Positions 7,829-64,000 of a stretch of DNA of 64,000 nt are shown here, one piece after another. Both the position numbers and the translations under genes were made by a program. Within the stretch, counting starts at the first letter, position 1. The number at the start of each line of letters is the position of its first letter. The DNA lies in assembly GCA_046290225.1 (NCBI GenBank), contig JBKAGE010000078.1, positions 477,049 through 541,048 on the forward strand, read 5' to 3'. The DNA is from Bradymonadia bacterium. Its GTDB lineage: Bacteria; Myxococcota_A; Bradymonadia; UBA7976; UBA1532. The notes below the pieces were generated by a model. That model searched no databases. It saw only the letters and a program-made list of their open reading frames with translations, and was not told the DNA's origin.

Positions 7829-9549
7829 ATGCGAAGCCTCCTTCGGGCCCACATGGCGGCCCCCCTCTTCGCCCTCTGTATGTCTGCTGTGTCTGTCTCC
7901 GGCTGTGGTGAGACTGATCAGACCAAGCCCTCTTACTGGATCGAGAAGCTCGAGGGCGATCAGGCGCGAACCGCCATCAACAAGCTCGCCGAGATGAAGG
8001 CCCCCGAGTCGGTCGATCCGCTCATGAAGGCCTTCGAGAAGAGCACGCACCGGTACGAGATCATCGCCGCCCTCACCAAGATCGGCGACAAGAAGGCCGT
8101 GCCCACCCTGCTCGCAGCCCTCGCCGACGTGAGCGACGCCAAGACCGGCCAGCTCGCCGGCAACACGCTCCTCGAGTGGGATGCCAAAGAGCACCTCGGC
8201 GAGTATCTGAAGGTGCTGGCCAACACCAAGATCAAAAAAGAGACCAAGCTGGCGGTCATGGAGTTGCTGGCGAAGTTCGCCGACACCCCCGCCGCCGATC
8301 AGCTCGTGGGCATGCTCGAGCTCGACCCCGACATCGAGCCCATCGTCTTCCTCGGCCTCGCCGCCGAGGGTGTGGGCAACATCGGCGCCGAGAAGCTCGG
8401 TCCCGAGCGCACCAAGAAGGCCGTCGACGGCCTGCTGCGCTGCATGTGGCTCGACGACGCCCTGGGCCGCAATGAGGTCATGAACTGCCGCATGGCGCTG
8501 AACAAGCTGGGCCCCAAGGCCTCTGCCGACGCCATCATCGCCACCCTCGAGCGCAAGAACCGCGAAGTTGAGAAGCGGGCCCGGAAGTTCGGCTTCAACG
8601 TCGGTGGCACCATCGAGTTCAAGACCGCTGAGCTGCTCAGCGACATGAAGGTGGACCGCGCCCTCGATCCCCTGCTCGCCGCCCTCACCAAGGTGGAGGA
8701 GCCCACCCCGGCCATGCAGGCCGACGGCAAGAAGATGAACGCCTTCGTGATGAGCGGTGTGCAGAAGGTGATCTCCATCACCAACGCCCTGGCCCTCATC
8801 GGCGACGAGAAGGCCGTGGACCCGATGCTCAAGCTGGTCCTCGACGACGAGTCTCCTCTGGAGAAGCGCCTCGCCGCCGTGCAGCAGCTCGCCTTCCTCG
8901 GCAGCCAGAAGCCCGTGAAGGATCTGGTGAAGTTCTTCAAGTCGAAGGACAACCTCAAGGCCTTCGGTACCCAGGGCTTCCGCCTCAACGTGGCCATCAC
9001 CCTCGGCAACCTCATCGACGGCACCGACGCCAAGACCTTCGCCGACTTCGACAAGACCATCAACACGGTCTACGACCAGGTCGACGCCGCCCTCAAGAAG
9101 GCCACTGCGGACTACAAGACCGCCTCCAAGGGCGCCCAGCAGGGCCTCGCCGCCGACATCCAGGGCTACCGCGAGTGGCTCAAGGGCTACACCAAGGTCA
9201 AAGAGAAGCTCGCCGTGGTCAAGGAGTGCAAGGACGAGGTGGGCTGCCTCGTAAAGAAGCTCGACGACGAGAAGACCCACGTGAAGGTGCAGGCAGCCCA
9301 TCGCCTCGCCCAGAAGGCCGACGCCAAAGACACGGTGATCAAGGCCCTGCTCGCTCGGGCGGGCACCGAAGACATGGTGGTGCGCAACGCGCTGCTCTTC
9401 GGCCTCGATCGTCTCGGCGACAGCTCGCTGGTGCCCGAGCTGCAGAAGATCCGCGACAAAGACGCGGAGAAGGCCGCCAAGAACAAGAAGCTGCGGGGTC
9501 TGGTCAACGTGATGGACCTCACCCTGGCCAAGATGGCCCACCGCGGCAA

Positions 9550-50231: not shown

Positions 50232-50265
50232 GGTCGTCCTGAATGTCGGGGGCCCGGGGCGGGCC

Positions 50266-51462
50266 TCAGAGGGCGCCCTGGAACAGGGCGGTGAAGCCAT
50301 CGGCGTCGACGGCGCGGGGGCCGAGGGGGTGGCACACGTCGGCGAGCGAGGCGGTGACGAGGGCGGGGATGTCCCCGGCTTCCACGCCGTGGTTGCCCAG
50401 GCCCACAGAGATGCCCACATCTTCGAGCAGCTGGTCGATCCAAGCGAGGAAGCCTGCAGCGGAGGCCTCTTTACAGCGAGCGGCCACGGCGAGGCGCTCG
50501 AAAGCCTCAGGCACCGCCACAGCGTTGTACGCCATGCACTGGGGCAGCATGAGGGCGTTGGCCAGCCCATGGTGCAGATCGCGCACGGTGCTCAGGGCGT
50601 GGGCGCAGGAGTGGTTCAGCCCCAGGCCCTTCTGGAAGGCGATCGCCCCCATCATCGACGCCTGCAGCATGCGCCCTCGGGCGAGGACGTGACGGGCGCG
50701 GGTGGCCTCGTCGAGAGCCTCCACCCCGCTGAGCATCACCTCACGTGCACAGGACACGGCCTCGGCGAGGTGCTGCGACACCAGGTACACGCCCTCGAGG
50801 GCGAGCCCGTCGCACAGGGGGTTGTCCCCCTTGGCGAGGAAGGCCTCCACGAGGTGTGTCAGCGCGTCCACCCCGGTGGCTGCGGTGACCTTCGGCGGGA
50901 GGCCCAGGTGCAGCTCGGGATCAGCGAGCACCACCACCGGCAACAGCTTGGGGTGGAAGATGATCTTCTTCACGTGGGAGTCGTTCTCGGAGATCACCGC
51001 GCTCCGCCCCACCTCGCTCCCGGTCCCCGCCGTGGTGGGGATGGCGATGATGGGGGGCAGCAGATCGCCATTGATCGGCCGAGCGCCGGGGACATCTTCG
51101 TAGTCGAAGAGCCGACCGGCGTGGCGTGCCATGACCGCCGCGGCCTTGGCCACGTCTACAGGGGCGCCACCGCCAATGGCCACCACACAGTCGGCGGTGT
51201 GGCCCTGGAAGGCCTGAACACACACGTCGACATGTGCCGCAGTGGGGTTCCCCTGCTCGTGGACCGCCTCGGCGACCTCAAGGCCCGCGTCGGCGAGGGC
51301 CTGCACCAGAGGGCGATACCACGACAGGGCAGCGACCCCGGCGTCGGTGATGATCAGCGGACGCTCGTGACCGAGCTCTCGGACCACGTCGGCGAGCGAA
51401 GACGCCACCCCGGGGCCAAAGCGAATGTCGGTGGGAAACCCGTATCGGGCGTTCGACAACAT
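50266..51462 (-). CDS. Iron-containing alcohol dehydrogenase
   Basis: GGGAPVDVAK, PTTAGTGSE, DALTHLVE, HSCAH, HHGLAN. Confidence 0.95.
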   Translation of the reverse strand: MLSNARYGFPTDIRFGPGVASSLADVVRELGHERPLIITDAGVAALSWYRPLVQALADAGLEVAEAVHEQGNPTAAHVDVCVQAFQGHTADCVVAIGGGAPVDVAKAAAVMARHAGRLFDYEDVPGARPINGDLLPPIIAIPTTAGTGSEVGRSAVISENDSHVKKIIFHPKLLPVVVLADPELHLGLPPKVTAATGVDALTHLVEAFLAKGDNPLCDGLALEGVYLVSQHLAEAVSCAREVMLSGVEALDEATRARHVLARGRMLQASMMGAIAFQKGLGLNHSCAHALSTVRDLHHGLANALMLPQCMAYNAVAVPEAFERLAVAARCKEASAAGFLAWIDQLLEDVGISVGLGNHGVEAGDIPALVTASLADVCHPLGPRAVDADGFTALFQGAL

Positions 51463-51516
51463 CAGCGGCTCCTCACTCCAAAGAGATGCTCAGATGAGTG
51501 CTTCAAAAAGAGATCC

Positions 51517-52902
51517 TCAAATGATCTCGAAGTATCGTTCCAGCTCCCAGGACGTCACCGCCTGGGCGAATTGTCGCCACTCCCACCGTCGAGTCTCGGC
51601 GAAGTGGTCCACGAAGGCGTCGCCGAGCACGGCGCGGGCCACGGGCGACGCGGCCATGCGCTCGGTGGCCTCCGGCAGGCTGCCCGGCAGCTTGGGTGCC
51701 CCTTCCACGGTGTAGCCGTTCCCCGTGACGGGGGCCGACTGCAACGTCAGCTTGTGCTCGATGCCGTACAGGCCGCTGGCGAGGGCGCCGGCGATGGCCA
51801 GGTAGGGGTTGATGTCGGATCCCGGCACCCGCAGCTCCACCCGATGGCTCTTCTGACCCCCGGGGATGACCCGCAGGGCCGTGGTGCGGTTCTCGATGCC
51901 CCAGGTCACTGTGGTCGGGGCCCACATACCCTCGACGAGGCGCTTGAAGCTGTTCACCGTGGGGGCGTACACCGGCAAGATCTCGGGCAGGCAGTGCATG
52001 AGCCCGGCGAGGTAGTGCTCGAACAAGGGGCTCATCTGGTGGGGCGCGTCGGCCTGATGGAACAGGTTGGACTTGCCCTCCAGATCCCAGAGGCTCTGGT
52101 GCAAGTGCCCACTGCAGCCCGGCAGCTCGGCGTTCCACTTGGCCATGAACGAGGGCACGATGCCAAAGCGCCGGGCGATGTCTTTGACGCCGGCCTTGAA
52201 CAACACCGAACGATCAGCGACCTCCAGCGCTGGGGCGGCGCTGATGGCGGCCTCGAACACCCCGGGGCCGGTCTCGGTGTGCAGACCCTCCACAGGTACG
52301 CCGAAGGCCTCCAGCTCGTTCATGATGGCGGCGAAGAAGGCCTGGTTCTCCTGGGCCCGCAGCAACGAGTAGCCGAACATGCCCGGGGTGATGGGCTGAG
52401 GGCGGTGGATGTTGCCGTCAGCGAGGCTCTGGGGCGTCTCTCGGAAGTTGAACCACTCGAACTCGGGGCCGAAGAAGGCGCGATAGCCCATGTCGGCGGC
52501 CCGGTCGATCACCCCCCGCAGCAGTCGCCGGGGGCAGATGGGCAACGGTGAGCCGTCGCTCTGCTCGAAATCGGCGAGGAAGAACGGCACGTCATCATCC
52601 CAGGGCACCTCTCGGAACGTGCTCAGGTCGATGCGGGCGTGGGCGTCGGGGTAGCCGGTGTGCCAGCCGGTGTAGGTGCTGTTCTCGTAGCACACGTCGG
52701 CGGCGTCCCAGCCGAAGATCACGTTGCAGAAGCCGAAGCCTTTATCCACGGCGGAGAGGAACTTCTCCGTGCGCACGTATTTGCCGCGGAGCACGCCGTC
52801 GATGTCCACCACCGCCAGCTTGACCCGGGGGCTCGAGGCACCCCGGATGCGATCGATGATCTGCTCGGGCGACAGAGGGGTCGAGGCTGTTCCAGCGGGC
52901 AT
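51517..52902 (-). CDS. Glutamine synthetase-like gamma-glutamyl-amine ligase (PuuA/GlnA4-type)
   Basis: DIDGVLRGK, GPEFEW, HTETGPGVFE, GCSGHLHQS, WGIENRT, RVELR. Confidence 0.92.
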   Translation of the reverse strand: MPAGTASTPLSPEQIIDRIRGASSPRVKLAVVDIDGVLRGKYVRTEKFLSAVDKGFGFCNVIFGWDAADVCYENSTYTGWHTGYPDAHARIDLSTFREVPWDDDVPFFLADFEQSDGSPLPICPRRLLRGVIDRAADMGYRAFFGPEFEWFNFRETPQSLADGNIHRPQPITPGMFGYSLLRAQENQAFFAAIMNELEAFGVPVEGLHTETGPGVFEAAISAAPALEVADRSVLFKAGVKDIARRFGIVPSFMAKWNAELPGCSGHLHQSLWDLEGKSNLFHQADAPHQMSPLFEHYLAGLMHCLPEILPVYAPTVNSFKRLVEGMWAPTTVTWGIENRTTALRVIPGGQKSHRVELRVPGSDINPYLAIAGALASGLYGIEHKLTLQSAPVTGNGYTVEGAPKLPGSLPEATERMAASPVARAVLGDAFVDHFAETRRWEWRQFAQAVTSWELERYFEII

Positions 52903-52991
52903 TCACACTCCCATCAGCGTCTGGCGACGTCTTGGTTCACACGATCGAGTGGGACTATATCCTGGGGGCAGCGACCGTCCAAAGAACCGTC

Positions 52992-54401
52992 TCAGCGACG
53001 ACGCCGCCCGCGATCCTTCCGGCCGCGTCTGGGCCGATAGATCCGGCTGCCGCCTCCCTGCACCACACGCTGAGATGGGGGCTCGGGCCGAACGACCCGA
53101 CCCACCTGCACCTGACCCACAACTTCGGCCTCGCCCGGGGCCAGCCTCAGCACGTCGCCGTTGCGAATCTCCACCGCGGGGATCCCCTGCCCTTCGCAGA
53201 ATTCACGGTGGGCGGCGAGGTGCTTGGGGTACCCGTGGACCGGCACCACCAACTGGGGCTTCACCCAGTCGTACATCTGGGCCAGCTCCTCGCGGCACGG
53301 ATGCCCGGAGACGTGGATCTGGGCGTCGCGCTCGCAGAAGACGGTGACCCCACGCTTCTCGAGGGCTTGATGCAGCGCGGCGATGGGCACCTCGTTCCCG
53401 GGGATGATCTTGCTGCAGAAGATGGCGGTGTCGCCTTCTTCGAGGTGCACCAGCGGGTGGGCGTCCCGAGCGATGCGGGGCAACGCCGCGGCGGCCTCGC
53501 CCTGACTGCCCGTGCAGATGACCAGAGTCTTCTCCGAAGGCAGATAGTCGGCGTACTCCCCACGGACGAAGGGCAGATCCCTCGGCAGATAACCTGTGGT
53601 CTGAGCCGCCCTCACCATGCGCTCGATGCTCCGACCGAGAAGCACAGGGTGACGATCACTCTGCAACGCTGCCTCTATGAGGGTCTGCAGCCGGGCGATG
53701 TTGCTCGAGAAGCACGAGGCGATGATGCGGCCTGGGCGGTTCGCCGCGAGTTCGAGGATGGCCTCGCGGGTGGAGGCCTCCGAGCCGGAGTGCCCTTCGT
53801 GGGTGGCGTTGGTGGAGTCGGCGACGGCGGCGATGATCGAGTTGGCCTTGCCGAGGGCCCTGAACCGCTTCTCATGGGTGACCTGTCCCACGAGGGGCTC
53901 CGGATCGAGCTTCCAGTCACCAGTGTGCAGAATCGAGCCGAGGGGTGTGGTGATCACCACACTCTGGGACTCGGGGGTCGAGTGGGTGATGGGGATATAC
54001 TGGATGCCGAAGGGGCCCACCTTGAACCGGGCCCCTGGTGCGTGCTCCTCGATGAGCTCTGCCCGCCCATACTCCGAGAGCCGCCCCCGAATCACCTCGG
54101 CGGCAAAGGGCGTGGCGTGAATCGGACACTCGAGATGCCTCGCCAGAGCGCCCACGGCGCCGATGTGATCTTCGTGGGCGTGGGTGATCACCAGCCCGGC
54201 GAGTTTGATGCCCCGCTCGGTGATGAAGCTGATGTCGGGGATCAGCACCCGGGACTCTGGAGGCGCGTCGCCGTCGATCATCATGCCACAGTCCAACATC
54301 AACCACTGGCCGGCCCAGTGATAGAGGTTGAGGTTCATGCCGATCTCGCCGGTGCCCCCGAGGGGGAGGAAGTACAGCGTCTTGGGATCAAAGGCGTCCA
54401 G
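52992..54401 (-). CDS. rnj: Ribonuclease J (short C-terminus; probable CTG start)
   Basis: 'FLPLGGTGEIGMN', THAHEDHIG, HTGDWK, DSTN, GSQGE, HVSGH, PVHG. AGGAGG lies 5 nt before the CTG at 54401. Confidence 0.93.
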   Translation of the reverse strand: MDAFDPKTLYFLPLGGTGEIGMNLNLYHWAGQWLMLDCGMMIDGDAPPESRVLIPDISFITERGIKLAGLVITHAHEDHIGAVGALARHLECPIHATPFAAEVIRGRLSEYGRAELIEEHAPGARFKVGPFGIQYIPITHSTPESQSVVITTPLGSILHTGDWKLDPEPLVGQVTHEKRFRALGKANSIIAAVADSTNATHEGHSGSEASTREAILELAANRPGRIIASCFSSNIARLQTLIEAALQSDRHPVLLGRSIERMVRAAQTTGYLPRDLPFVRGEYADYLPSEKTLVICTGSQGEAAAALPRIARDAHPLVHLEEGDTAIFCSKIIPGNEVPIAALHQALEKRGVTVFCERDAQIHVSGHPCREELAQMYDWVKPQLVVPVHGYPKHLAAHREFCEGQGIPAVEIRNGDVLRLAPGEAEVVGQVQVGRVVRPEPPSQRVVQGGGSRIYRPRRGRKDRGRRRR

Positions 54402-54560
54402 AAATGCCTCCTGGGTTCGAGTCCGCGGAAGTATAGACGAAGTGTGGCCTGTATCGACGAAGGTTGGGCTCCGCCCATGTGCACCTCAAGCACCACGGCG
54501 TGGGCTCGGCTCTGATTCCGGGAGTGGTCCTGGGGGGTCCCCTCGCGGTATTCTGCACAG

Positions 54561-55964
54561 ATGCGATGCGTTCTCCTGTCTCTGACAGTGGGCCTCTTGG
54601 GACTCGGTTGTCAGTCTGCACCACAGCCTGCACCACAGACCGCGGCTCCGCTGGCGCCACCACAGATGGATCTCGATCTGCTGGTGGCGTGGCTCGACCA
54701 GTCTCCATTGCAGTACGACCTTCAGGAGCAACCGCGGGCAGTTGACGGCTTCGAGTCTTTTTTTCAGTCAGGCTTCTCACCGGTGCGGGTCCCCCTCGAT
54801 CGTCGGGCCCTTCAGCGCCGGCTCGCTCGACCTCGGGCTGGATCGGATCAACAGACAGCCCTCGAAGACTCGGTCCTCGTGGACACCCGCGGTGGGGAGG
54901 CCTGGGCCGCATATCTCGCCTTCCTCGCTCGGGAAGGCCGGGGCCTGCCTCCAGCGCCGCTGTTGCCACCCGGCACAGTGCAGCTCGGTGTTGATCGCGC
55001 AGAGATCAAATATCCACGTGGTCAGTCCATCTGGGCCTTCTATCTGGCCTGCAAAGCCGCCGCCCGCCTTGAGCCCGGGTTCCGACGGCTGCTCGGCGCC
55101 CCCGAAGCTGAGCCTTATCGCTGGACCCTCGCCGAGGAGCGGGGGTGTCTGTCCATCTTCGCGCAAGGGGCGAGGCGGGCAGCCTCTGAGGGTGTTCAGC
55201 CACGTGGCCTCGCAGCCCACGTCCTCGCCGCCGCCCGAGCGGGTGTTCTCGAAGGGTACGTCGTCGTCGAGGCCGTGGGGGTCATGGCCCCTGGGGTCCT
55301 GCCCACGCTGCCCCCTGGCGCCCGCCGAGCTGGCCGCGCCTACCTGCGGTGGGCCGCACGCCCCATCGCCCACCTGCCACCTCCAGCGCCCCCACTCGCC
55401 AAAGCGGCGCTCCCCCCCGAGCCACTGCCCGCACAGGAGCGGCTGCGCTTCGACGCCGCCGTCACCGCCCTCGATGCCGGCTCACTTCGGCGCGCCCAGG
55501 CGGTCCTGTCAGATCTCGCCCGGCGCCACGGCCGCAACGCCGAGGTGCTCCGAGCCCTCGCCGAGGCCCGTATGCGCAATGATGATCCTCGGGGTGCAGC
55601 AGAGGCAGCAGATCAGGCCGAGGCCATCGCTCCAGGGCATCTGGGTACGTGGGCCTTGCTCGCCCGAGCCCGGCTCGCCGCCGGCGATGAAGAGGGCGCC
55701 CGAGCCGCAGCAGATCGGCTGCGATGGCAGTGGTGGCTCGGCGGTGACCAGGCCATCATGCGGGCCCCCATCTTATTCTGGGGCGCCGCCGCTGGAGGCG
55801 CGGTCCTTGAGCGGCTCGATCGCATCGACGAGCTCACTCCGCGGTTCTGGTGGATTAAACCTCACGGCCCCGGAGGCCCTGCCCGCAAAGCCCTACAGGC
55901 CGAGAGCCCCGCGGAAGCGCTGAGCGAAGCCGCCCGCATCGGAGAGGCACCCCACCCACAGTGA
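54561..55964 (+). CDS. Hypothetical lipoprotein with TPR-like C-terminal region
   Basis: Lipobox LGLG-C and Ala-rich TPR-like helices ('NAEVLRALAEA', 'TWALLARARL'). Confidence 0.65.
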   Translation: MRCVLLSLTVGLLGLGCQSAPQPAPQTAAPLAPPQMDLDLLVAWLDQSPLQYDLQEQPRAVDGFESFFQSGFSPVRVPLDRRALQRRLARPRAGSDQQTALEDSVLVDTRGGEAWAAYLAFLAREGRGLPPAPLLPPGTVQLGVDRAEIKYPRGQSIWAFYLACKAAARLEPGFRRLLGAPEAEPYRWTLAEERGCLSIFAQGARRAASEGVQPRGLAAHVLAAARAGVLEGYVVVEAVGVMAPGVLPTLPPGARRAGRAYLRWAARPIAHLPPPAPPLAKAALPPEPLPAQERLRFDAAVTALDAGSLRRAQAVLSDLARRHGRNAEVLRALAEARMRNDDPRGAAEAADQAEAIAPGHLGTWALLARARLAAGDEEGARAAADRLRWQWWLGGDQAIMRAPILFWGAAAGGAVLERLDRIDELTPRFWWIKPHGPGGPARKALQAESPAEALSEAARIGEAPHPQ

Positions 55965-56006
55965 GGGATTGAACATCCCCGCCCCCTTGGGCCACAGTGA
56001 CGGCCC

Positions 56007-56723
56007 ATGATGACGCCTGCCCACCTACTCGCTGTCTCCGCATTGCTCCTCCCGCTCTCCGCAGGGGCGCAAGATCCCGACGACTTCGATCCGATCCTCG
56101 ATGGTCAGGAGAGCCCTTCTGGAGGCTCCGAGCCCATCACCCCCGAGGAGCCCTTCCCCCTCGGCTTCATGATCGGCGCCGGCGGCGGGCTCTACTTCGG
56201 ACGTGTGAAGAGCTACCTCGATCCCGACATCAGTCGCCTGGAAAGCGGTCTGCGTCCCGGCCTCAGCCTGGGGCTATCCGGGCGTACGCGGAGCGGGTGG
56301 GAGATCGGTCTCGAGATGATGGTGGGCTTCGGCCGCACCTTCGAGCCCGACGAGGGCGAGGTCGAGGCCTTTGATCTCATGGTGCAGCCCCGGGTGCTCT
56401 ATCACTTCGTCGAAGAAGAGAGCTACGGCTTCTACGGGGGCCTCGGTGGCACTTTCTGGGGGTTCGATCTCGGCGGCGAGGGCCTGAATCAGGGCGGCGC
56501 CGGGCCGGGTGCGGTGCTGGGCCTCGTCTTCGCCCGAGATCTGCACGGGCACCTCTACCTCGAGCTGGGCACCACCGCCCTCTACGACTTCCTCGCCTAC
56601 CGGTTCGAAGATCCCACAGCGGAGCAGCTGATCGAGGATCCCACCGCGGAGCCGGAGAAGATCGAGGGGGAATGGTTCATCTTGAGCCGGGTGATTCTGG
56701 GGTATCGTCTGACGAACTTCTGA
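56007..56723 (+). CDS. Putative outer-membrane beta-barrel protein
   Basis: Signal peptide, alternating Gly/aromatic beta-strands, terminal Phe. Confidence 0.7.
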   Translation: MMTPAHLLAVSALLLPLSAGAQDPDDFDPILDGQESPSGGSEPITPEEPFPLGFMIGAGGGLYFGRVKSYLDPDISRLESGLRPGLSLGLSGRTRSGWEIGLEMMVGFGRTFEPDEGEVEAFDLMVQPRVLYHFVEEESYGFYGGLGGTFWGFDLGGEGLNQGGAGPGAVLGLVFARDLHGHLYLELGTTALYDFLAYRFEDPTAEQLIEDPTAEPEKIEGEWFILSRVILGYRLTNF

Positions 56724-56994
56724 GGGCCCCCTGTTCGAGCTGACCGGACATCTGCTCCGCAGCTCTCAGGCGTTGTCTGACCCAGCTCCGATTTGGCCCT
56801 GGACCCAGCCTGCCAGGGCCCGCCCGACGGCCAAAGCACGCCCGCGGCTGACGCTGAGGCCCCCGCGTCGGCGGCCCGCGGTGCCAGTGGTCCCCTTCGA
56901 GCCCCAATGACCAGCCCGGCGATCCGCCCCAGCGCTCGGCGACGCTCGAGGCCCTCGGCGGCCCCTGCGCCCAGAATGGTGCGCACCACATCAT
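56677..56994 (-). CDS. Possible small hypothetical protein downstream of recombinase 2
   Basis: ATGA overlap with the recombinase stop; fills an otherwise empty gap of about 270 bp. Composition is weak evidence for coding. Confidence 0.3.
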   Translation of the reverse strand: MMWCAPFWAQGPPRASSVAERWGGSPGWSLGLEGDHWHRGPPTRGPQRQPRACFGRRAGPGRLGPGPNRSWVRQRLRAAEQMSGQLEQGALRSSSDDTPESPGSR

Positions 56995-57965
56995 GCTGCC
57001 TCCTCCCACGACTCGCCCTCGTATTGCTCGGCGAGCCTCAGATAGACCCGGGCGGCGTCGAGGCTCTCCAGGCCCAACAGCTCCGCCAAAGTGACAGGAT
57101 CCTTGAACTTGACCGCATACTGCACCGCGAAGATGTGCCGCAGCACCTGGGGGCTGGCGTCGACGCGGGCGAACTGACCGTGCTTGCGCACCACCCGCTG
57201 CACCGCGTTCGCCGTGAGCGGTCCTCTCTCCCCCACGAACACCGCCTGATGTTCATCTCTCGGCCCCGCGCTCAGAGGCATGGGTGAGGTGATCATCAGC
57301 CGGCTCGCCGGAGGCGAGGGCAGGTCCGGGTCGAGCACGTGGCCCGGGAACCCTCGCTCCATCAGGCTCCAGCCCAGCCGCCACGCCACGCGATCCGAGA
57401 TGGGGATCACACAGCGCCGCCCGGGGATGACGATGCGTCGCGCTGGCAGGTCGAGCTGACCCACGGTCATGCTCACCAGCTCCCCCACCTTCATCCCGGT
57501 GCCCAGCAGCGTGTAGATGACTGCTTGGTCCCGCAGACACCCGTGGGCGTCCACCTGCAGACAGAGCGCCCGGACCTCCGGCGGGCTCAGCAGCTTCGGT
57601 GACCGGTGGGTGGTGGGCAGCGCCTCGATGGTCTTCATGTCGTCACAGACCTCCCTGGCCAGCCACCCCTCCGCGGCGAGCCACTGTGCGTAAGTGCGGG
57701 CAAATGCGAGCCGCCGCGCCGCCGTGGCGCCGCTGCGGCCCTTCTTCAGGGCCCCGTCCCGCCAGGCCCTGATGTGAGCGGCGTTGAGCAGCCCCGCTTC
57801 GAAGGAGGCCTTCTCCACCCGACGAAACCAGCAGCTCAGATCGATCCAGTCAGAGGTGTAGGCCCGGATGGTGGCCGGACGGCGCCCCCGTGCGCTCAGC
57901 TCGTCGACGAACTGTGAAAAGCGCCGCCCCTCAGTCTCCGAGGCGAACGGGTTGTCGATGTCCAT
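56991..57965 (-). CDS. Xer-like tyrosine recombinase paralog 2 with degenerate active site
   Basis: SAM-like N-domain ('ATIRAYTSDW'), RDQA..TGMKVGEL, SPQVLRHIFA, LLGLES...VY; strong AGGAGAGGAG RBS. Confidence 0.88.
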   Translation of the reverse strand: MDIDNPFASETEGRRFSQFVDELSARGRRPATIRAYTSDWIDLSCWFRRVEKASFEAGLLNAAHIRAWRDGALKKGRSGATAARRLAFARTYAQWLAAEGWLAREVCDDMKTIEALPTTHRSPKLLSPPEVRALCLQVDAHGCLRDQAVIYTLLGTGMKVGELVSMTVGQLDLPARRIVIPGRRCVIPISDRVAWRLGWSLMERGFPGHVLDPDLPSPPASRLMITSPMPLSAGPRDEHQAVFVGERGPLTANAVQRVVRKHGQFARVDASPQVLRHIFAVQYAVKFKDPVTLAELLGLESLDAARVYLRLAEQYEGESWEEAA

Positions 57966-58001
57966 GATCTCTCCTCTCCTTCGACGGCCTCAGCCTGCAT
58001 G

Positions 58002-59411
58002 TCACTGCAGCAGCGACAGGGCTTGCTGTGGCGTCGAGTTCGCCTGGGCCAGAATGTTGTTTGCGGCCTGGGTCAGGATCTGGCTCCGGGAGAGCTGCAT
58101 CGACTCCTCGGCGAAGTCGGCGTCCTGGATCCTGCTCCGGGCGGCGCTGATGTTCTCGCTGGTGGACGACATGGCACGGATGCTGGCGTCCAACCGGTTC
58201 TGCAACGCGCCGAGGCGTCCTCGGCTGGCGTTGATCTCCTCGAGCACTCGATCGACGACGTCGAGGGCGGACTCCGCGCCGAAGCGTGTGAGCACGCTGA
58301 TGGTGTCGAGCCCCTGGGTGACCGTGCGGCCCACCCGGTGATCGTTGGTGAGCCCGATGAAGGTCTCGGCGTTCCCAGTGACCTGGAAGCCCTCCTCGCT
58401 GTCGAGGGTCAGCGTGCCCAGGCTCACATCTGAGGCGCCCAGGCCGGTGATGCCCGCGGCGCCGCCTGCGGTGACCACCTCGATGTTGCGCCCGTCGGAG
58501 GCGTCGAGCTGAATCCGACCGTCGGCATCTCGCGACGCCACCACCCCGGTGCGCTCCACCAGGCTGTTGATGGCGTTGATCAGCTCGTCGCCGGCATCAG
58601 AGGGGCTCACGCTGAACCCGGTGATCTCCTCGCCGTTGATGACGATGTAGTTCGTCTCGTCGAGCACACCACCAGCGGCGACGGCGTTCCCCTCTCTCGT
58701 AGTCTGGTTCACCACCGCCCTCACCCCCGTAAAGTTGGTGAAGTCGTTGATGGCCGCGGCCTTCGAGATGGCCGATCCGGTGGCAAACGAGGTGCTCACC
58801 CCATCGTCCACCGTTTGGGTGGCGCGGATGGTGACGCCATTGATGATGACGTCCCCAGCGGCGATGGCCTGGGTGGCCACCACGTTGCTCGTCTGCACCG
58901 CCCATCGCCCCAGAGAGTCCTGCCGAGCGTCACCGATGCCCACGGAGAATCGCTCACCGAACTCGCTGCCGATTTGCAGGTAGCGATCGATGAAGGTGCC
59001 GTCGAGCAGCGACAGGCCGTTGAAGGTGGTCCGGCGCCCGATGCTCCCGATCTCGTCGATGAGCTGGGTGATCTCGTCCTGAATCGAGGCGCGATCGGCA
59101 TCAGAGTTGATGTCGTTCGCCGCCTGAATCGACAGCTCTCGCACACGTTGTAAAAGATCCGAGGTCTCTTGCAGGGCAGACTCGGCTGTCTGTGCCAGGC
59201 CCACCCCATCGCTGGCGTTGCGCACCGCCCGGTTGAGCCCCCTGATTTGGGTGGTCATCCTGACGACGATGTTCAGGCCCGCGGGGTCGTCTTTGGCGCT
59301 GTTGATGCGCAGCCCGCTGGCCAGGCGCTCGAAGCTACGTTTGAGCACCTGATTCTTGCGCCCCAGTTGACCCATCGCCTGATGGGACGAGGCGTTGTGA
59401 TTGACGATCAT
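58002..59411 (-). CDS. fliC: Flagellin (paralog 3)
   Basis: 'ERLASGLRINSAKDDPAG', 'LQRVRELSIQAAN', 'RGRLGALQNRL', 'SRIQDADFAEES'. Confidence 0.95.
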   Translation of the reverse strand: MIVNHNASSHQAMGQLGRKNQVLKRSFERLASGLRINSAKDDPAGLNIVVRMTTQIRGLNRAVRNASDGVGLAQTAESALQETSDLLQRVRELSIQAANDINSDADRASIQDEITQLIDEIGSIGRRTTFNGLSLLDGTFIDRYLQIGSEFGERFSVGIGDARQDSLGRWAVQTSNVVATQAIAAGDVIINGVTIRATQTVDDGVSTSFATGSAISKAAAINDFTNFTGVRAVVNQTTREGNAVAAGGVLDETNYIVINGEEITGFSVSPSDAGDELINAINSLVERTGVVASRDADGRIQLDASDGRNIEVVTAGGAAGITGLGASDVSLGTLTLDSEEGFQVTGNAETFIGLTNDHRVGRTVTQGLDTISVLTRFGAESALDVVDRVLEEINASRGRLGALQNRLDASIRAMSSTSENISAARSRIQDADFAEESMQLSRSQILTQAANNILAQANSTPQQALSLLQ

Positions 59412-59426
59412 ACTCCCCTCCCATCA

Positions 59427-60857
59427 TTAGCCCTGAATCAGTGAGAGGGCCTGCTGGGAAGAGGAGTTGGCCTGAGCGAGGATCGAGGTGGCGGCCTGCT
59501 GCAGAATCTGGTTCCGAGAGAGCGAGGCCGACTCCACGGCGAAGTCAGCGTCGAGGATGCGGCTCCGGGCCTGAGTGGCCTGCTCCACCACGGTGGTCAG
59601 GTTGCTGATCGTGCTCTGCAGGCGGTTCTGCAGCGCGCCGAGCTGAGCGCGATCCTGGCTCACCTGCGACAGCGCCCGGTCGACGACGAGCAAGGCGAGG
59701 TTGGCGTTGTCTCGGCTCGTCAGGTCGATCTTGTCGAGCACCTGCGCGGTGTTCACACCGACCAATTGTGCGGGGTTGAAGCCGATGTAATCAGCGTTGA
59801 CACCGTCGATCTGGTACTGGTCGTCCGAGGTCAACGTCACTTGCGACAGCGTGACCGACTCGTTGTTCACGCCATCGGTGAGGCCCGTGAAGTCACCGGC
59901 GTTGCCCGTGGCGATGACCTCGATGTTGCGGCCGTCCTGAGCGCGCAGCTCGATTCGTCCCTGCTGATCTTTGATGGCCACGACGCCGGTGATGTCCGAC
60001 TCGGCGTTGATGGCCCTTACCAGTTGGTCGTCGGCGTCGTCCGGGGTCACTTCGAAGCCCAAGATCGTGCGGCCGTTGATGACGATGTTGTTGTTGGTGT
60101 CGAGCACCCCGCCCTGAATCGCCGCCACGCTCTCGCGCACCGTGGGGCTCACGTAGGCGGTGACCCCGTGGTAGTCGGTGCTGTCGTTGATGGCCGAGGC
60201 CTTGGCCACACCCGAAGCGGTGGGCAGCGAAGTCGACAAGCTGTCGTCCGCGGCGTTCGTGGCGCGAATGCTCACCCCGTTCAGGAGCACGTCGCCGTTG
60301 GCCAGGGCCTGGGTGCTCACCACGGCGCCGGTCTGCACAGCGACGCGGCCCAGGGTGCTGGCCCGGGCGTCTCGAATGCGCACCCGCAGGTTCTCTCGGA
60401 AGTTCATGCCGATGTGGAAGAACTGGTCGAGGAAGCTGCCGTCGAGGATCTTCTTCTGGTTGAAGGTGGTGCTCTCGCCGATGCGCTCCAGCTCGTCGAT
60501 GAGCTGGGTCACCTCGGAGTTCATGGCGGTGCGGTCCGACGTGGTGTTCACGTCAGAGGCCGCCTGCACCGCGAGCTCTCGAATGCGCTGGAGAATGTTG
60601 GTCGACTCTCTCAGCGCCCCTTCAGCGGTCTGGGAAAGGCTGATGGCGTCGTTTGCGTTGCGCATCGCCTGGCTCAAGCCTCTGATCTGGCTCGAGAATC
60701 GCTCGCCGATGGCCATCCCTGCGGCGTCGTCGGCGGCGCTGTTCACGCGCAGACCGCTCGACAAGCGCTGGAAGCTGGTCTGAAGGCGGCGGGTCGAGCC
60801 CACCATGTTGCTCTGGGCGTTGAGCGACGAGATATTGGTGTTGACGAACAGACCCAT
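59427..60857 (-). CDS. fliC: Flagellin (paralog 2, most canonical; probable major subunit)
   Basis: 'VNTNISSLNAQ', 'RLSSGLRVNSAADDAAG', 'LQRIRELAVQAA', 'RAQLGALQNRL', 'SRILDADFAVES'; GGAGG RBS. Confidence 0.97.
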   Translation of the reverse strand: MGLFVNTNISSLNAQSNMVGSTRRLQTSFQRLSSGLRVNSAADDAAGMAIGERFSSQIRGLSQAMRNANDAISLSQTAEGALRESTNILQRIRELAVQAASDVNTTSDRTAMNSEVTQLIDELERIGESTTFNQKKILDGSFLDQFFHIGMNFRENLRVRIRDARASTLGRVAVQTGAVVSTQALANGDVLLNGVSIRATNAADDSLSTSLPTASGVAKASAINDSTDYHGVTAYVSPTVRESVAAIQGGVLDTNNNIVINGRTILGFEVTPDDADDQLVRAINAESDITGVVAIKDQQGRIELRAQDGRNIEVIATGNAGDFTGLTDGVNNESVTLSQVTLTSDDQYQIDGVNADYIGFNPAQLVGVNTAQVLDKIDLTSRDNANLALLVVDRALSQVSQDRAQLGALQNRLQSTISNLTTVVEQATQARSRILDADFAVESASLSRNQILQQAATSILAQANSSSQQALSLIQG

Positions 60858-60864
60858 GGTGGTG

Positions 60865-60933
60865 TCCTCCGTGATCTTGTGTTCACCGCATCCATGCGGT
60901 GAGGTCTGTTGAGCCACGCCTCATCCCGGCGTG
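60865..60933 (-). promoter_or_regulatory. Candidate CsrA/RsmA binding sites in the flagellin 2 leader
   Basis: Hairpin TCACCGCA-TGGA-TGCGGTGA (60883-60902), hairpin CACGCC-GGGATGA-GGCGTG (60915-60933), and ACGGAGG overlapping the SD. Confidence 0.65.
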
Positions 60934-60974
60934 CGCAGTTCGGAACTTCTGAAACTCTCATGCAGCGCCGGAGC

Positions 60975-61205
60975 TCAGGGTCGTGGGCCCCGGCGCTGGT
61001 TCACGTGCTGTGTCTCGGTGCGTCCCTGGCCGGGCCGTCGTGGGCCGCGTCGGGACCAGCCCCGAGTCGGTGGGGCATGCATCAGGTCCTGGATGAGTCC
61101 TTCGAGGTCTCTCACCAGGTCCCTCACTTGCCCCACCAGCCCGGAGAAGGGCCCGGGGGCCATCGGCTCGCGCTCAGGGCCACCCCGCTGTTGGGTGTGG
61201 TCCAT
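60975..61205 (-). CDS. Small hypothetical protein (76 aa) downstream of recombinase 1
   Basis: ATG follows the recombinase stop after a 12-nt gap with a G-rich RBS; one amphipathic helix 'LVGQVRDLVRDLEGLIQDLM'. Confidence 0.5.
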   Translation of the reverse strand: MDHTQQRGGPEREPMAPGPFSGLVGQVRDLVRDLEGLIQDLMHAPPTRGWSRRGPRRPGQGRTETQHVNQRRGPRP

Positions 61206-61217
61206 GGCGCGCCCCCC

Positions 61218-62144
61218 TTATCCTCTCGCCGCGGCGCGCAGGGCGGCCATCCGTGCCGGGGTCTCCGCAGCGCGGCCTCTCGCCGCGGCCTGCTCCAGGT
61301 AGAGCCGGGTGGTCTCCAGCGATCCGTGGCCGAGCAGCTCCGCCAGGGTGTTGATGTCCACCTTGCCCTCCTCGAGGGCCCGCATGGCGAAGGTGTGGCG
61401 CAGGATGTGGGGGGTCACCGTGATGCCCGCCTTGCGGCCGTAGCCGCGCAACATGCGCTGAATGCCGTTCGCCGTGAGGGGGCCGCGCTCACCGAGGAAC
61501 AGCGGGCCGGGGCCGTCGCCGCGAGGCTCGATGAGGTAGGTCTTCAGAGCCCGGCGGGCGGTGCGGCCGATGGGCACCCGGCGGACCGGAGCGCCGGCGG
61601 GGCCGGGGATGTGAAACCAGGCGCGGCGGCTGCCGAGCTCCAGCTGCTCCCGGGTGATCTCCACCAGCTCACCGACGCGCAGGCCGGTCTCGAGCAGGGT
61701 CCAGATGATGGCCCGATCCCGGGTGCTCCCGCACTCTTCCACCACCTCGAGGAGCATGGCCTCTTCGCGATCGCTGAGCCCCTTGGGCTTGCGGGGGTCC
61801 TGAGCCACTGCCGAGAGCTCCCGCACGGCGGCTTCGGCGCCGCCGGTGAGGTAGCCCTGGGCCCGGGCCCAGCGAGCGTAGGCTTTGAGAAACACGAGCT
61901 TGCGGTTCACCGTGGAGGGGGTCATGCCCTCGCCCACCAGGGCCGCCTTGTACTCGGCAGCGGCGGCCTCGGTGATCTCGCTCACGGTGAAGGGGGCCTT
62001 GTAGTGCCCGGCCCACCAGGTGGCCAGCCCCCGCCAGTCGGAGCGGTAGGCTTCCACGGTGCGGGCCTTGCGGCCCCGTGCCTTCAGGTCGGCCTCGAAC
62101 TCGCCGAAGCGGGCCTGCTCCGAGGCGTCGAACATCTCACTCAT
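61218..62144 (-). CDS. Xer-like tyrosine recombinase paralog 1
   Basis: 'RTVEAYRSDW', 'STVNRKL', RDRA..TGLRVGEL, TPHILRHTFA, LLGHGSLETTRLY; AAGGAGG RBS. Confidence 0.93.
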   Translation of the reverse strand: MSEMFDASEQARFGEFEADLKARGRKARTVEAYRSDWRGLATWWAGHYKAPFTVSEITEAAAAEYKAALVGEGMTPSTVNRKLVFLKAYARWARAQGYLTGGAEAAVRELSAVAQDPRKPKGLSDREEAMLLEVVEECGSTRDRAIIWTLLETGLRVGELVEITREQLELGSRRAWFHIPGPAGAPVRRVPIGRTARRALKTYLIEPRGDGPGPLFLGERGPLTANGIQRMLRGYGRKAGITVTPHILRHTFAMRALEEGKVDINTLAELLGHGSLETTRLYLEQAAARGRAAETPARMAALRAAARG

Positions 62145-62254
62145 GTCTCTCCCCTCCTTGGGATGGTGGGCGCACGCCACCGGTTCGGGATCACCCCGTC
62201 GTGGCGTCGCTCATCGAGTCTTGGGTCTCTGTGGTGCGTCTCTGGCTGCGGCGG

Positions 62255-63667
62255 CTACTGCTGCAGTAAGGACAACACTTCTGATCTTCGAGAGTTGGCC
62301 TGGGCGAGCATGCCCAGCCCTGCCTGCTCCAGCACCTGGCTGCGGGCCAGGTCTGCAGAGGCCTTGGCAAAGTCGGTGTCGTTGATCCGGCTCCGGGCCT
62401 CGGTGATTTGCTCCATCTGCCCGGTCATCGTGTCCACGAGGGCCTGCAGCCGGTTCACCACCACCCCGAGACGCGCTCGGTCGGTGGACAGCTCCTCGAG
62501 CACCCGCTCGAGGACCAGAATCGCCTTGTCGGCCCCCTCGCGGCTGGTGAGATCCAGGGTGCTCAGGGCCTCGTCGAGGCTCACCTGCACCTGCTGGTTG
62601 TCTCCGAAACCGATGAAGGCCTCGTTGGCGCCACCGAGCACAAAGTCGCTGTCGCTGTGCAGGTAGAGCTGCCCGGTGACGGTGCTCAGCGCGTCCACCC
62701 CGACGATGTTTCCGGCGTTCCCGGTGGCCTCCACCTGGATGTTCCGGCCGTCGGAGGCGGTGAGGGTCAGCCGACCCTGCACATCGAGGCCAGCGACCAC
62801 CTCACCGTCGAGCTGAGCGTTGATGGCCTTCACCAGGGTGTCTCCAGCGCGGCCCTCGTTCAGGTCGACGACGATGTTCTGCCCGTTGATGACCAGAGCG
62901 TTGTCGAAGTCGAGACGCCCCGGCTGAATGGCGGCGTTGCCCACAAACTCGGTGGTGAGAGGCACGGCGGTGACGCCGTGGTTGCTGGTGCCCTCGTTGA
63001 TGGCGGCGGCCTTGGCGATGGCCGAAGCGGCGGGGAACGCCGTGCTCAGGTCATCGTCGCTGTCGGCGGTGGCCCGCACCACAGCCCCGTTGATGGTCAA
63101 GTCACCATCCGCGAGGGCGTCGAGGGTCACTGCGGCGCCGGTGCTCACGGCCTGTCGACCGAGGTTGGTGGCCCGAGCGTCGCGGGTCTGAACAGCCAGA
63201 CGCTCACCGGCGAAGGCCCCCACCTGAAAGCTCAGGGTGGCGACGCTGCCGTCGAGCAGGTTGCGGCTGTTGTACTGGGCGCCGCCGGCGATGCGGGTGA
63301 TCTCGGCGCTGAGGCTCTGGAACTCGTCGTTGATGTTCTCGCGGTCGATGGCGCTCACGGTGTCGTTGGCGCCCTGCACGGCGAGCTCGCGCATCCGCTG
63401 CACGATGTCGCTGATCTCACCGAGGCTGCCCTCGGCTGTCCGGGCCATTTCCTGCCCCGCGAGGGCGTTGTCAAGGGCCCGGGTGAGGCCCTTGAGGTGC
63501 CCACCGAGCCGAGCGGCGAGGGTGACCCCGGTGGGATCTTCGCCGGCGTGGCTGTTCCGCTCACCGCTGGAGAGCTGCCGAAAGCTCCGGCTCAGGCTCC
63601 GACGATGACCACCGACGGAGCGGGTGGCCCGGAGGCTGGCGCTGTCGGTGTTCAAGTAAAAGCCCAT
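62255..63667 (-). CDS. fliC: Flagellin (paralog 1, divergent N-terminus)
   Basis: 'QLSSGER', 'TAEGSLGEISDIVQRMRELAVQGAN', 'RARLGVVVNRL', 'SRINDTDFA'. Confidence 0.93.
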   Translation of the reverse strand: MGFYLNTDSASLRATRSVGGHRRSLSRSFRQLSSGERNSHAGEDPTGVTLAARLGGHLKGLTRALDNALAGQEMARTAEGSLGEISDIVQRMRELAVQGANDTVSAIDRENINDEFQSLSAEITRIAGGAQYNSRNLLDGSVATLSFQVGAFAGERLAVQTRDARATNLGRQAVSTGAAVTLDALADGDLTINGAVVRATADSDDDLSTAFPAASAIAKAAAINEGTSNHGVTAVPLTTEFVGNAAIQPGRLDFDNALVINGQNIVVDLNEGRAGDTLVKAINAQLDGEVVAGLDVQGRLTLTASDGRNIQVEATGNAGNIVGVDALSTVTGQLYLHSDSDFVLGGANEAFIGFGDNQQVQVSLDEALSTLDLTSREGADKAILVLERVLEELSTDRARLGVVVNRLQALVDTMTGQMEQITEARSRINDTDFAKASADLARSQVLEQAGLGMLAQANSRRSEVLSLLQQ

Positions 63668-63751
63668 GGTGACTCTCCGTATATGACGGGCCCGTTTTTT
63701 CGGGGCCCTCGGGGTTATGCGGTGACCCTCTCAGGGCCTCGCTCACCCACC

Positions 63752-63778
63752 ACATCGTCGGCGTCGGGGCAGACTTCA
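63752..63778 (-). promoter_or_regulatory. Candidate sigma28 (FliA)-like promoter for the flagellin-recombinase cluster
   Basis: TGAAGTCT-N11-GACGATGT versus consensus TAAAGTTT-N11-GCCGATAA (6/8 and 5/8), about 85 nt upstream of the ATG. Confidence 0.4.
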
Positions 63779-64000
63779 GAAAAAAGTGCATTTTTATCGT
63801 GCGGGCTGTCTCAACCCATCGAATTCGCGTGTTTTTTTGTTATCGGGAGAGGCGTATTTTCTTATCAGGCGAGGGGGGTGGGGGTTATCTGGCGGGTTGA
63901 GAAGAGAGTTTTTCGGGCACGGGCACGGACTCTCTATCAATTCGCAACCCCCCTTTTGAGGGTAGGTTTTGTGGTGTAGCGGAGGACAAGCCAAACCAGG

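Follow-up and report, generated by a model that had tools for sequence, protein, structure and literature searches.

The window analysed here, a stretch of 64,000 nucleotides (nt) from the genome of a Bradymonadia bacterium, ends at the end of contig C78 of the assembly. Its last part carries a flagellin locus in which three flagellin genes, fliC1, fliC2 and fliC3, are interleaved with two genes, rec1 and rec2, whose products resemble the Xer-type tyrosine recombinases. A first-pass annotation of the letters had seen in this array a dedicated module that would either rearrange or switch flagellin expression or use domesticated recombinases as DNA-binding regulators. Comparison with related genomes and metagenomes establishes that the flagellin/Rec module is indeed dedicated, ancient and selected: it is a conserved feature of one family, at the same chromosomal position from genus to genus, it is kept under purifying selection, and it is lost together with the flagellins.

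Organisation and conservation of the flagellin/Rec module

The module and its borders comprise the following features, with gene coordinates taken from the listing of open reading frames (ORFs) and protein lengths in amino acids (aa):

62255–63667, minus strand: fliC1 (position F_A), 470 aa; Pfam Flagellin_N 2e-28, Flagellin_C 9.8e-17; precedes rec1
61218–62144, minus strand: rec1, 308 aa from ATG; Pfam PF00589 3.3e-26, PF02899 1.2e-06
60975–61205, minus strand: small ORF of 76 aa, starting 12 nt past the rec1 stop; a predicted helix, then an Arg-rich tail
59427–60857, minus strand: fliC2, 476 aa from ATG, the first internal flagellin; Flagellin_N 2.9e-44, Flagellin_C 1.4e-21, Flagellin_IN 8.1e-09
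58002–59411, minus strand: fliC3, 469 aa, 15 bp after fliC2; Flagellin_N 3.7e-41, Flagellin_C 2.2e-23; precedes rec2
56991–57965, minus strand: rec2, 324 aa; Pfam PF00589 8.3e-13, PF02899 5.3e-08
56007–56723, plus strand: d251, the conserved downstream flank gene, convergent with rec2; signal-peptide-like N-terminus, no Pfam match
63903–64000, no strand given: terminus of a repeat resembling a miniature inverted-repeat transposable element or insertion sequence (MITE/IS); these last ~100 bp match many contig ends and mark the boundary of the locus, not a part of the module

The gene order, the coordinates and the gaps of 110, 12, 117, 15 and 36 bp that the first-pass annotation had read along the minus strand, from fliC1 through rec1, the 76-aa ORF, fliC2 and fliC3 to rec2, match the ORF listing exactly; a GTG at 62180 is a further open start of rec1. 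All three flagellins are complete by Pfam, with Flagellin_N and Flagellin_C (plus Flagellin_IN) domains. The two Rec proteins had been taken for paralogs, and an alignment with 35% identity over 311 columns (E 2e-50) bears this out. The genome contains no further close paralog of rec1 or rec2, only two more distant Xer-like genes (C75:293785 and C43:80992). Likewise, fliD, fliS and flaG are absent from this part of the window, as had been noted, and are found on contig C75, where they adjoin another flagellin trio. Seven flagellin genes are present in the genome: those of the window, a tandem trio on C75 and a single gene on C64; the C75 trio is the canonical flagellin locus and the window module is a second, accessory one. 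Pfam and defence-system scans and a tRNA search revealed no phage, plasmid or defence genes at the module, and no tRNA gene lies within 50000–64000.

The loci of relatives were mapped as tblastn-anchored ORFs in assemblies labelled G000 to G043, G000 being the genome of the window. A search with Rec1 recovered orthologs at 44–50% identity throughout the family, usually with a second, Rec2-like match 3–9 kb away. The shared architecture runs on one strand throughout, as F_A, 66–191 bp, Rec1, 360–3617 bp, one to four flagellins and Rec2. Rec2 starts 14–82 bp past the last flagellin in 12 of 15 loci and 397 bp past it in G005. The architecture is present in full in 12 genomes of 9 genera (G000, G024, G017, G002, G015, G023, G012, G005, G003, G020, G019 and G011), or in 13 if G026-type duplicates are included; in G008 the same architecture is divided between two contigs, and fragments in G041, G043 and G007 are consistent with it. 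Two genera (G004, G006) carry a simpler form, flagellin-flagellin-small ORF-Rec-flagellin, with a single Rec at the base of the Rec2 clade.

The claim that each recombinase follows a flagellin recurs, for Rec2, far beyond the window. A flagellin lies directly in front of Rec2 in all 17 assessable genomes, an eighteenth Rec2 (G007) starting at a contig edge. Of the 80 loci that a Rec2 alignment retrieved from metagenome contigs, 14 hold a close relative (13 Rec2 at 52–86% identity and one Rec1-flagellin-Rec2 fragment). The flagellin is directly upstream and on the same strand in 14 of these 14, some of which are near-duplicates from related samples (L074/L078, L075/L076), versus 0 of 64 control loci holding distant integrases only; two short contigs with partial matches of 30–43% (L082, L083) were excluded from both counts. 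A contig scan with Rec1 alone yielded one distant relative (30%).

A census of 28 genomes of the family found Rec2 in 18 and flagellin in 21, to be read as counts and not as statistics, kin not being independent. All 18 genomes with Rec2 are flagellin-positive, and Rec2 occurs in none of the seven flagellin-less ones. The three flagellated genomes that lack Rec2 are 70, 81 and 87% complete. Two of them, G018 and G042, also lack alaS at the protein level; since this essential neighbour of the module is missing too, the module is probably unassembled there, and these genomes are not counted as losses. A DNA comparison within their genus, g4, found nothing in G018 or G042 that matches the G003 flanks, and only pieces of 64–68% identity in G043. 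Outside the family, 85 genomes from the eight remaining families of the class yielded no member of the Rec2 clade, even though 17 of these genomes are flagellin-positive. As a side observation, three genomes of the sister family f2 (G025, G026 and G027) hold 10–25 Flagellin_N matches each, an unusually high number, and no member of the Rec clade.

It had also been considered that the closest homologs might lie in unrelated neighbourhoods or be plain XerC/XerD proteins. For Rec2 this is not the case, and it applies only to a few Rec1-clade paralogs in flagellin-less genera. Four flagellin-less genomes (G013, G021, G014 and G022) have Rec1-clade genes away from flagellins, as do a short contig of G009 and, with a second copy, G007; in the tree these genes have no resolved placement within the Rec1 clade. 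These flagellin-free genes (L035, L036, L037, L040, L042 and L021) adjoin, for example, genes for RNase HI and an SPFH/band-7 protein, and they keep K/R-R-H-Y.

In other genera the chromosomal slot consists of alaS, a cytochrome P460-like gene, the module, a CheY-type receiver gene and d251. The G024 gene that follows the module shares 43% identity with the d251 of the window, and in the flagellin-less G013 and G014 the homolog of d251 lies beside alaS and the response regulator; in these two genomes alaS, a P460 remnant, the receiver gene and d251 are adjacent and the module is gone. In the genome of the window, contig C36 opens with an inverted copy of the window-end repeat; the copy lies 40 nt from the alaS stop, and alaS is 222 nt away from the contig start. 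The repeat thus takes the place, between alaS and the fliC1 promoter, that the P460-like gene holds in other genera, and C78 and C36 are most likely linked by a MITE/IS which replaced this gene. The element arrived later and is specific to this genome, the other genera lacking it. The shared slot, including the C78/C36 join, therefore speaks for an ancestral, vertically inherited module and against an island. A reading of the locus as a mobile island was ruled out by the same synteny (alaS and d251 flanks, one slot across genera); the search for att repeats, a tRNA target, phage, plasmid or transfer genes and a patchy distribution came out negative at the module, and the ortholog clades track the family. 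Concerning the repeat itself, its 25-nt terminal repeat has 28 occurrences in the genome, frequently in inverted pairs spaced by 270–390 bp; the element, with terminal inverted repeats of (GCCCGT)n-like units at at least 28 places, breaks many contigs. The neighbours of the module at lower window coordinates are genes for a glutamine synthetase catalytic-domain protein (51517–52902, minus strand), an RNase J-like beta-CASP metallo-beta-lactamase (52992–54338, minus strand) and a TPR protein (54561–55964).

Rec1 and Rec2 form sister clades (support 97/93 for Rec2 and 87/90 for Rec1) set apart from the two housekeeping Xer paralogs of the genome (100/98), the Rec proteins of the window being on long branches of 1.56 and 1.54. 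Judging from the trees, the two ortholog clades predate the radiation of the family. Between close pairs, the ratio of nonsynonymous to synonymous substitution rates (dN/dS) takes these values:

rec1: 0.06–0.29
rec2: 0.15–0.25
flagellins: 0.04–0.35
small ORF: 0.31–0.35

Thus, rec1 and rec2 are under purifying selection comparable to that on the flagellins. In their tree, flagellins cluster by position (F_A, before Rec2 or middle) across genera and not by genome; therefore, outside the genome of the window, the array has been neither shuffled nor homogenised. A shufflon-like or gene-conversion-like history of the array was rejected on the basis of this tree.

Neither Pfam nor PHROGs nor PADLOC has a match for the 76-aa ORF, whose Atlas scores (0.84 or less) are at chance level. 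Positional homologs, starting 3–22 nt past the rec1 stop, occur in 8 of 13 rec1-bearing loci. A complex of Rec1 and the small ORF product of G017, predicted with alignments, scored 0.00, a result that carries no weight either way.

Catalytic centre and search for recombination sites

Both Rec proteins possess the two domains that define the tyrosine-recombinase fold, the PF02899 core-binding domain and the PF00589 catalytic domain. Their best-ranked NCBIfam models are XerA_Arch, XerC and XerD, and all scores stay far below the equivalog cut-offs: Rec1 reaches 147.2 against 220 for XerA, 142.8 against 335 for XerC and 128 against 329.6 for XerD, and Rec2 reaches 99.1 for XerC and 88.4 for XerD. 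The best PDB sequence matches of Rec1 are XerA (4a8e and 5hxy) and XerD (1a0p). The AlphaFold model of Rec2 (mean pLDDT 86.1, with low confidence for insertion residues 220–233) is matched by Foldseek to XerA, lambda Int, XerH, Tn1549 Int, IntI and Cre, with a probability of 1.00 and TM scores up to 0.66. An assignment to the integron integrases finds no backing, the corresponding models scoring 42.4 vs 265 and 32 vs 435; there are no attC-like repeated elements between the flagellins, which are stable orthologs and not cassettes. Rec2 orthologs share a conserved insertion of ~50 residues (ERGLLE.P.SGEI.LPA.GGWPP ... SPMPFG) with no counterpart in Rec1 or in Xer proteins; in the Rec2 of the window it is shortened and divergent.

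The catalytic positions were read against the two housekeeping Xer paralogs, both of which have the canonical R-K-H-R-H-Y. The centre reads R-P-H-R-H-Y in the Rec1 of the window and K-R-Q-R-L-Y in its Rec2. In the clades as a whole (18 Rec1 and 14 Rec2 members) the residues are distributed as follows:

Arg-I: Rec1 clade, R 8, K 10; Rec2 clade, R 4, K 10
Lys-beta: Rec1 clade, K 1, R 12, other 5; Rec2 clade, K 0, R 8, other or gap 6
First His: Rec1 clade, H 1 (the Rec1 of the window); Rec2 clade, H 6
Arg-II: Rec1 clade, R 18; Rec2 clade, R 14
Second His: Rec1 clade, H 18; Rec2 clade, H 4
Tyr: Rec1 clade, Y 18; Rec2 clade, Y 14

The canonical set is complete in 0 of 32 members. Lys stands at Arg-I in 20 of the 32, and in six genomes it does so in both Rec1 and Rec2. 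Moreover, the GKGxK hairpin of Xer proteins is missing throughout the Rec clade.

A search for anything that such proteins might recombine was largely negative. The direct repeats of the window are explained by flagellin paralogy, the flagellin 3′ ends being 64–74% identical over 138 nt. The best inverted repeats of the window measure 16–27 nt with 71–94% complementarity, and none of them meaningfully brackets a promoter or gene. A core-site motif search (11-mers with at most one mismatch, in at least 6 of 8 genera) found no conserved att- or dif-like site in the non-coding DNA of the module, to which it was confined; what it did recover was limited to leader hairpins, Shine-Dalgarno sequences, GCACTTTTTT, GATAAC, a -10-like CCGATGA and GC-rich noise. 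No variant in orientation, order or gene deletion was seen in 31 of 31 loci, with every gene on one strand, and neither bounding inverted repeats nor both orientations of a segment, the marks of a DNA-inversion phase switch, were observed. The suggestion that the module rearranges or switches the flagellins is thus left unsupported, given the lack of convincing inverted repeats and of a conserved att/dif-like site in non-coding DNA, the same-strand arrangement of 31 loci and the position-specific orthologs in other genera. Regarding the spacers, the most variable part of the module is that between rec1 and the following flagellin (360–3617 bp). Downstream of rec1 it contains tandem repeats in two genomes, namely GACCGTGA-type 8-mers in G015 (L027, ~9000–9150) and four copies of a 27-nt unit in G012 (L029, ~8250–8360).

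Flagellin control regions and expression logic

Sequence reading and comparison with other genera delimit these control elements in the window:

63752–63889, minus strand: upstream control region of fliC1 (F_A)
63884–63889, 63861–63866 and 63839–63844, minus strand: GATAA[CG] boxes in this region
63794–63799, minus strand: CGATAA in this region
63780–63789, minus strand: GCACTTTTTT in this region
63752–63779, minus strand: predicted sigma-28-like promoter CTGAAGTC-N12-GACGATGT
60858–60935, minus strand: 5′ leader of fliC2, two hairpins with GGA loops and a GGA-containing Shine-Dalgarno sequence, in a CsrA-type layout

The same elements stand in the same order upstream of the rec1-preceding flagellin in other genera and upstream of no other gene of the module. 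What is conserved at F_A only comprises one to three (C)CGATAA[CG] boxes, GCACTTTTTT and the sigma-28-like -35/-10 pair, which we take to be a sigma-28-type promoter. Matches to GATAA[CG] inside rec1, rec2 and d251 were dismissed as coding motifs, such as the codons of AY.SDW. The internal flagellins have different upstream sequences, and a clear sigma-28-like promoter is present at F_A only; a sigma-54 reading of the internal promoters was dropped, as by eye the pattern is not kept between close relatives. The genome encodes two FliA/WhiG-type sigma factors above the curated cut-off (C82:157689–158354 and C75:117596–118273), and because the promoters differ, the two flagellar sigma factors may serve different flagellin sets.

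At the level of translation, the fold of the fliC2 leader (-25.8 kcal/mol, z -1.66) is not significant alone. Nevertheless, the flagellin-leader motifs GCATGGATGC and TCAnGGAGGAC are conserved in 8 genera, and csrA and fliW are adjacent at C75:228978–229791, ~9 kb from the canonical flagellin locus. Flagellin leaders controlled by CsrA are known in other bacteria, and the GGA-hairpin layout agrees with them. The leader hairpins together with csrA/fliW thus point to CsrA/FliW control of flagellin translation in the family. In G015 and G023, the rec1 leader also contains motifs similar to those of the flagellin leaders. The fliC1 of the window stands out by its long branch in the flagellin tree (0.75), its divergent N-terminal helix, with SGERNSHAGEDPTG where relatives have SGLR.NSA.DDAAG, the lack of a GGA-hairpin leader and a shortened 5′ untranslated region, and it may be a specialised or decaying copy.

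On the coding strand of the module, a consensus scan detected neither sigma-70 promoter-like nor terminator-like sites, in agreement with the earlier remark that obvious terminators are missing; its sole terminator-like site is on the plus strand (63676–63690). The gaps in front of the rec genes are short and their ribosome-binding sites strong; some flagellin stops are followed by hairpins without U-tracts, and several relatives have clear intrinsic terminators behind rec2. In G006, start and stop codons overlap at both ends of the Rec gene, its stop with the ATG of the next flagellin and its start with the stop of the small ORF. This layout suggests that the rec genes are the distal genes of flagellin transcripts. 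Conserved small ORFs have also been noticed in other gaps, between the third and fourth flagellin (L024/L025/L026), between the last flagellin and rec2 (L030) and between flagellin and rec (L041/L044). In the g3 genomes, a 'mini-flagellin' of ~69 aa consists of a MGLNIHT... flagellin start fused to a C-terminal D0-like helix, and G005 has an ORF of ~130 aa with the flagellin motif RLSSG.RI. These gap ORFs may act as decoys that engage flagellin chaperones or partners, or they may be remnants of deletions that have stayed in frame.

Possible functions and relation to known systems

The explanation that we prefer, with about as much confidence as doubt, is that Rec1 and Rec2 are co-transcribed, recombinase-derived DNA-binding regulators of the flagellin locus, like FliZ or MrpR. 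It is favoured because the catalytic centres are degenerate, the array is stable, no sites were found in non-coding DNA and the rec genes occupy an operon position. The regulator half of the original proposal is accordingly the one that the degenerate active sites (0 of 32 canonical) favour, and it stands as favoured and not as demonstrated. A regulatory role for such full-length recombinase relatives at flagellin loci has not been described in the literature searched. Under this explanation, Rec1 and Rec2 would be anciently duplicated, chromosomally fixed descendants of Xer-type proteins that have become dedicated parts of an accessory flagellin locus. Each rec would be the promoter-distal gene of a flagellin unit (F_A-rec1-small ORF, and internal flagellins-rec2-terminator), and, given the probable co-transcription, the Rec proteins would be made only when, and in proportion as, the module flagellins are expressed. 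With the two-domain fold kept and the canonical catalytic centre lost, they would retain sequence-specific DNA binding. Bound to DNA within or close to the module, they might then exert feedback on the transcription of the flagellin units, so as to set the choice between F_A and the internal block, or between the module and the fliC-flaG-fliD-fliS locus. A Rec1/Rec2 hetero-oligomer might possibly bridge two sites without strand exchange. The candidate target is the GATAA[CG]/GCACTTTTTT region upstream of the F_A promoter, the sole family-wide conserved non-coding candidate.

Several observations weigh against a purely regulatory role. Arg-II and Tyr are invariant (32 of 32), and a basic pocket around the nucleophile fits a working unusual site too. 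The second His is kept in 18 of 18 Rec1-clade members, Arg-I is always R or K, and Lys-beta is Arg in 20 of 32, in an indel-rich stretch of the beta-hairpin alignment that makes this column less certain than the others. The Rec1 of the window keeps five of the six canonical residues. Some active recombinases, IntDOT among them, lack Arg-I. The GATAA[CG] boxes are similar to the -10 elements of sigma-28 promoters and may have no role beyond that of promoter parts. In addition, the flagellin-free Rec1-clade genes indicate that, for the Rec1 type at least, a role outside the flagellin context exists or can be acquired. Finally, fliC3 of the window clusters with the C75 flagellins of its own genome (support 94) and not with its positional orthologs, a placement that reflects replacement or conversion of fliC3 at least in this genome, as far as the tree can tell.

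Some of these observations are shared by the strongest competitor, in which Rec1 and Rec2 form an active XerC/XerD-like heteromeric pair with an unconventional site that rearranges the flagellin array, for instance by excising the block between the rec genes as a circle or by changing the copy number of internal flagellins in a subpopulation and hence the composition of the filament. We regard it as unlikely. Besides the retained residues (Tyr and Arg-II throughout, R/K at Arg-I, the invariant second His of the Rec1 clade and the 5/6 of the window Rec1), it can draw on a full catalytic domain under purifying selection, on the confident recombinase fold, and on the position of the paralogs at the 3′ ends of flagellin units, which would create directly repeated contexts (the 64–74% over 138 nt). 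It would also fit the variation between genera in internal flagellin number (one to four) and in the gap between rec1 and the flagellins (360–3617 bp), and it has a precedent in the tyrosine-recombinase excision of the flnA region of E. coli H17, as described in the available part of that report (PMC3378880). However, no canonical centre is left, Lys occupies Arg-I in both partners of six genomes and the beta-hairpin Lys persists in 1 of 32. Non-coding DNA holds no conserved core-type site and no convincing inverted repeats, a single arrangement without deletion or inversion is found in all 31 loci, and the position-wise flagellin orthologs across genera bespeak a stable array. A place behind highly expressed genes, with translational coupling, would moreover be unusual for an enzyme needed in catalytic amounts.

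A stripped site consisting of a basic residue at Arg-I, Arg-II and Tyr, with neither the beta-hairpin Lys nor the first His, might still work in such a pair, either in a slow, expression-coupled rearrangement such as the circular excision of the block between the rec genes or in a covalent Tyr-DNA 'bookmarking', an idea to which we give a rather low probability. If true, it would allow a heritable single-cell choice of filament composition, and it would amount to a new catalytic variant of tyrosine recombinases and to a new form of flagellar variation, borne by free-living predators instead of pathogens.

The fold could also serve another purpose, as a sensor of unexported flagellin through the Rec2 insertion or as nicking or topoisomerase-like help to heavily transcribed operons, which strikes us as quite improbable. 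The ~50-residue insertion of the Rec2 orthologs, lacking in Rec1 and Xer, and the small ORFs translationally coupled to the rec genes would suit a function of this kind, as would the retained R/K-R-Y triad, which can be likened to a minimal type-IB-like centre. Against it, the insertion is shortened and divergent in the Rec2 of the window, and nothing ties these proteins to flagellin binding. Lastly, that the rec genes are functionless leftovers of an integrative element that delivered the flagellins, as their integrase-superfamily membership and the MITE/IS repeat just upstream of fliC1 in this genome might suggest, is close to refuted and hardly credible, given purifying selection as strong as on the flagellins, one chromosomal slot with housekeeping flanks across genera, two clades that predate the family radiation, the absence of tRNA, phage, plasmid and defence genes and the later, genome-specific arrival of the MITE.

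About half of the flagellated species carry several flagellin genes, for reasons that are mostly unknown according to the part of the source available (PMC6299084). The family-wide retention of two recombinase-derived proteins at a flagellin locus offers a testable handle on the control of multiple flagellins. It also adds a chromosomal, paired and structural-gene-linked case to the short list of recruited full-length tyrosine-recombinase folds, represented by MrpR, whose authors consider, in the accessible section of their paper, that such recruitment is perhaps more widespread than anticipated (PMC10516654). Should the Rec proteins still recombine DNA, the minimal active site of the family would be redefined. 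In practice, the current annotation as 'site-specific recombinase XerD' or 'integrase' would wrongly mark these flagellin loci as mobile islands.

Recombinases that act on flagellar genes are known from a few systems. Hin is a serine recombinase, and in C. difficile the RecV flagellar switch is said to involve a site-specific recombinase linked to flagellar expression. In Salmonella, flagellar phase variation is driven by Hin recombinase at hix sites, as far as the excerpt of the source goes (PMC8987985). In E. coli H17, the tyrosine recombinase Int1157 excises the flnA flagellin region, by the account in the part of the paper at hand (PMC3378880). These systems possess a repeat-bounded invertible or excisable segment, and their recombinase is not co-transcribed with the flagellins or lies on an island, whereas in the module no such repeats, invertible segment or island features were found and the active sites are degenerate. 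The claim that no described operon embeds two Xer paralogs among flagellins holds in the literature searched (full texts, without supplements), which returned only the Hin, RecV and Int1157 cases and no description of such a module. Flagella have been documented in the class in the Persicimonas paper, the available portion of which makes no mention of recombinases (PMC7188933). The module also differs from other arrays of surface structures: its genes are co-oriented and stable in order. Xer-like recombinases stand beside surface-structure genes in the case of the FimB/FimE invertases, the Mycoplasma Xer1/HvsR and the Rci shufflon, but these act on inverted sites among opposed genes or segments.

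By sequence and fold, the closest relatives of Rec1 and Rec2 are XerC/XerD and XerA, with the same two domains and, in XerC/XerD, a similar pairing of paralogs. Rec1 and Rec2 score far below the equivalog cut-offs, and the Rec clade has neither the GKGxK hairpin nor the full centre. The genome has separate housekeeping Xer paralogs with intact centres, whereas the rec genes are embedded in flagellin operons; XerC/XerD form one housekeeping set acting at dif, and the non-coding DNA of the modules contains no conserved dif-like motif.

FliZ would provide a functional analogy. It is a DNA-binding repressor of 183 aa in the flagellar regulon, with a 76-aa region similar to the integrase core-binding domain, for which XerD is closest, according to the part of the study available (PMC3367168). 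In Escherichia coli, Salmonella and Xenorhabdus, the likeness lies, on the same partial account, in a flagellar-regulon protein that is expressed along with flagellar genes and has a Xer-like core-binding part. Rec1 and Rec2 differ in being full-length (308 and 324 aa), with a catalytic domain and its Tyr. Furthermore, FliZ is encoded in the fliA operon, as stated in that part of the text, whereas the rec genes lie behind flagellins and beside neither of the FliA-type sigma genes. The FliZ model is absent from the NCBIfam matches of the Rec proteins, and the resemblance would be one of function and not of membership.

There is a likeness of kind with MrpR (YopR), the master repressor of the Bacillus phage SPbeta. 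As set out in the accessible part of the paper (PMC10516654), this protein combines core-binding and catalytic domains in a recombinase fold in which most catalytic residues are replaced and the Tyr is kept; it performs no recombination in vitro, acts as a repressor that binds repeated DNA elements, and uses the Tyr for DNA binding and stability. No specific homology to MrpR appears among the PDB sequence matches of the Rec proteins at E ≤ 1e-10 or in the Foldseek matches listed. Rec1 and Rec2 nevertheless share with it the full-length fold, the degenerate centre and the retained Tyr. MrpR is a phage protein that serves lysogeny, whereas Rec1 and Rec2 are chromosomal, paired and tied to flagellins, and they keep Arg-II together with a basic residue at Arg-I.

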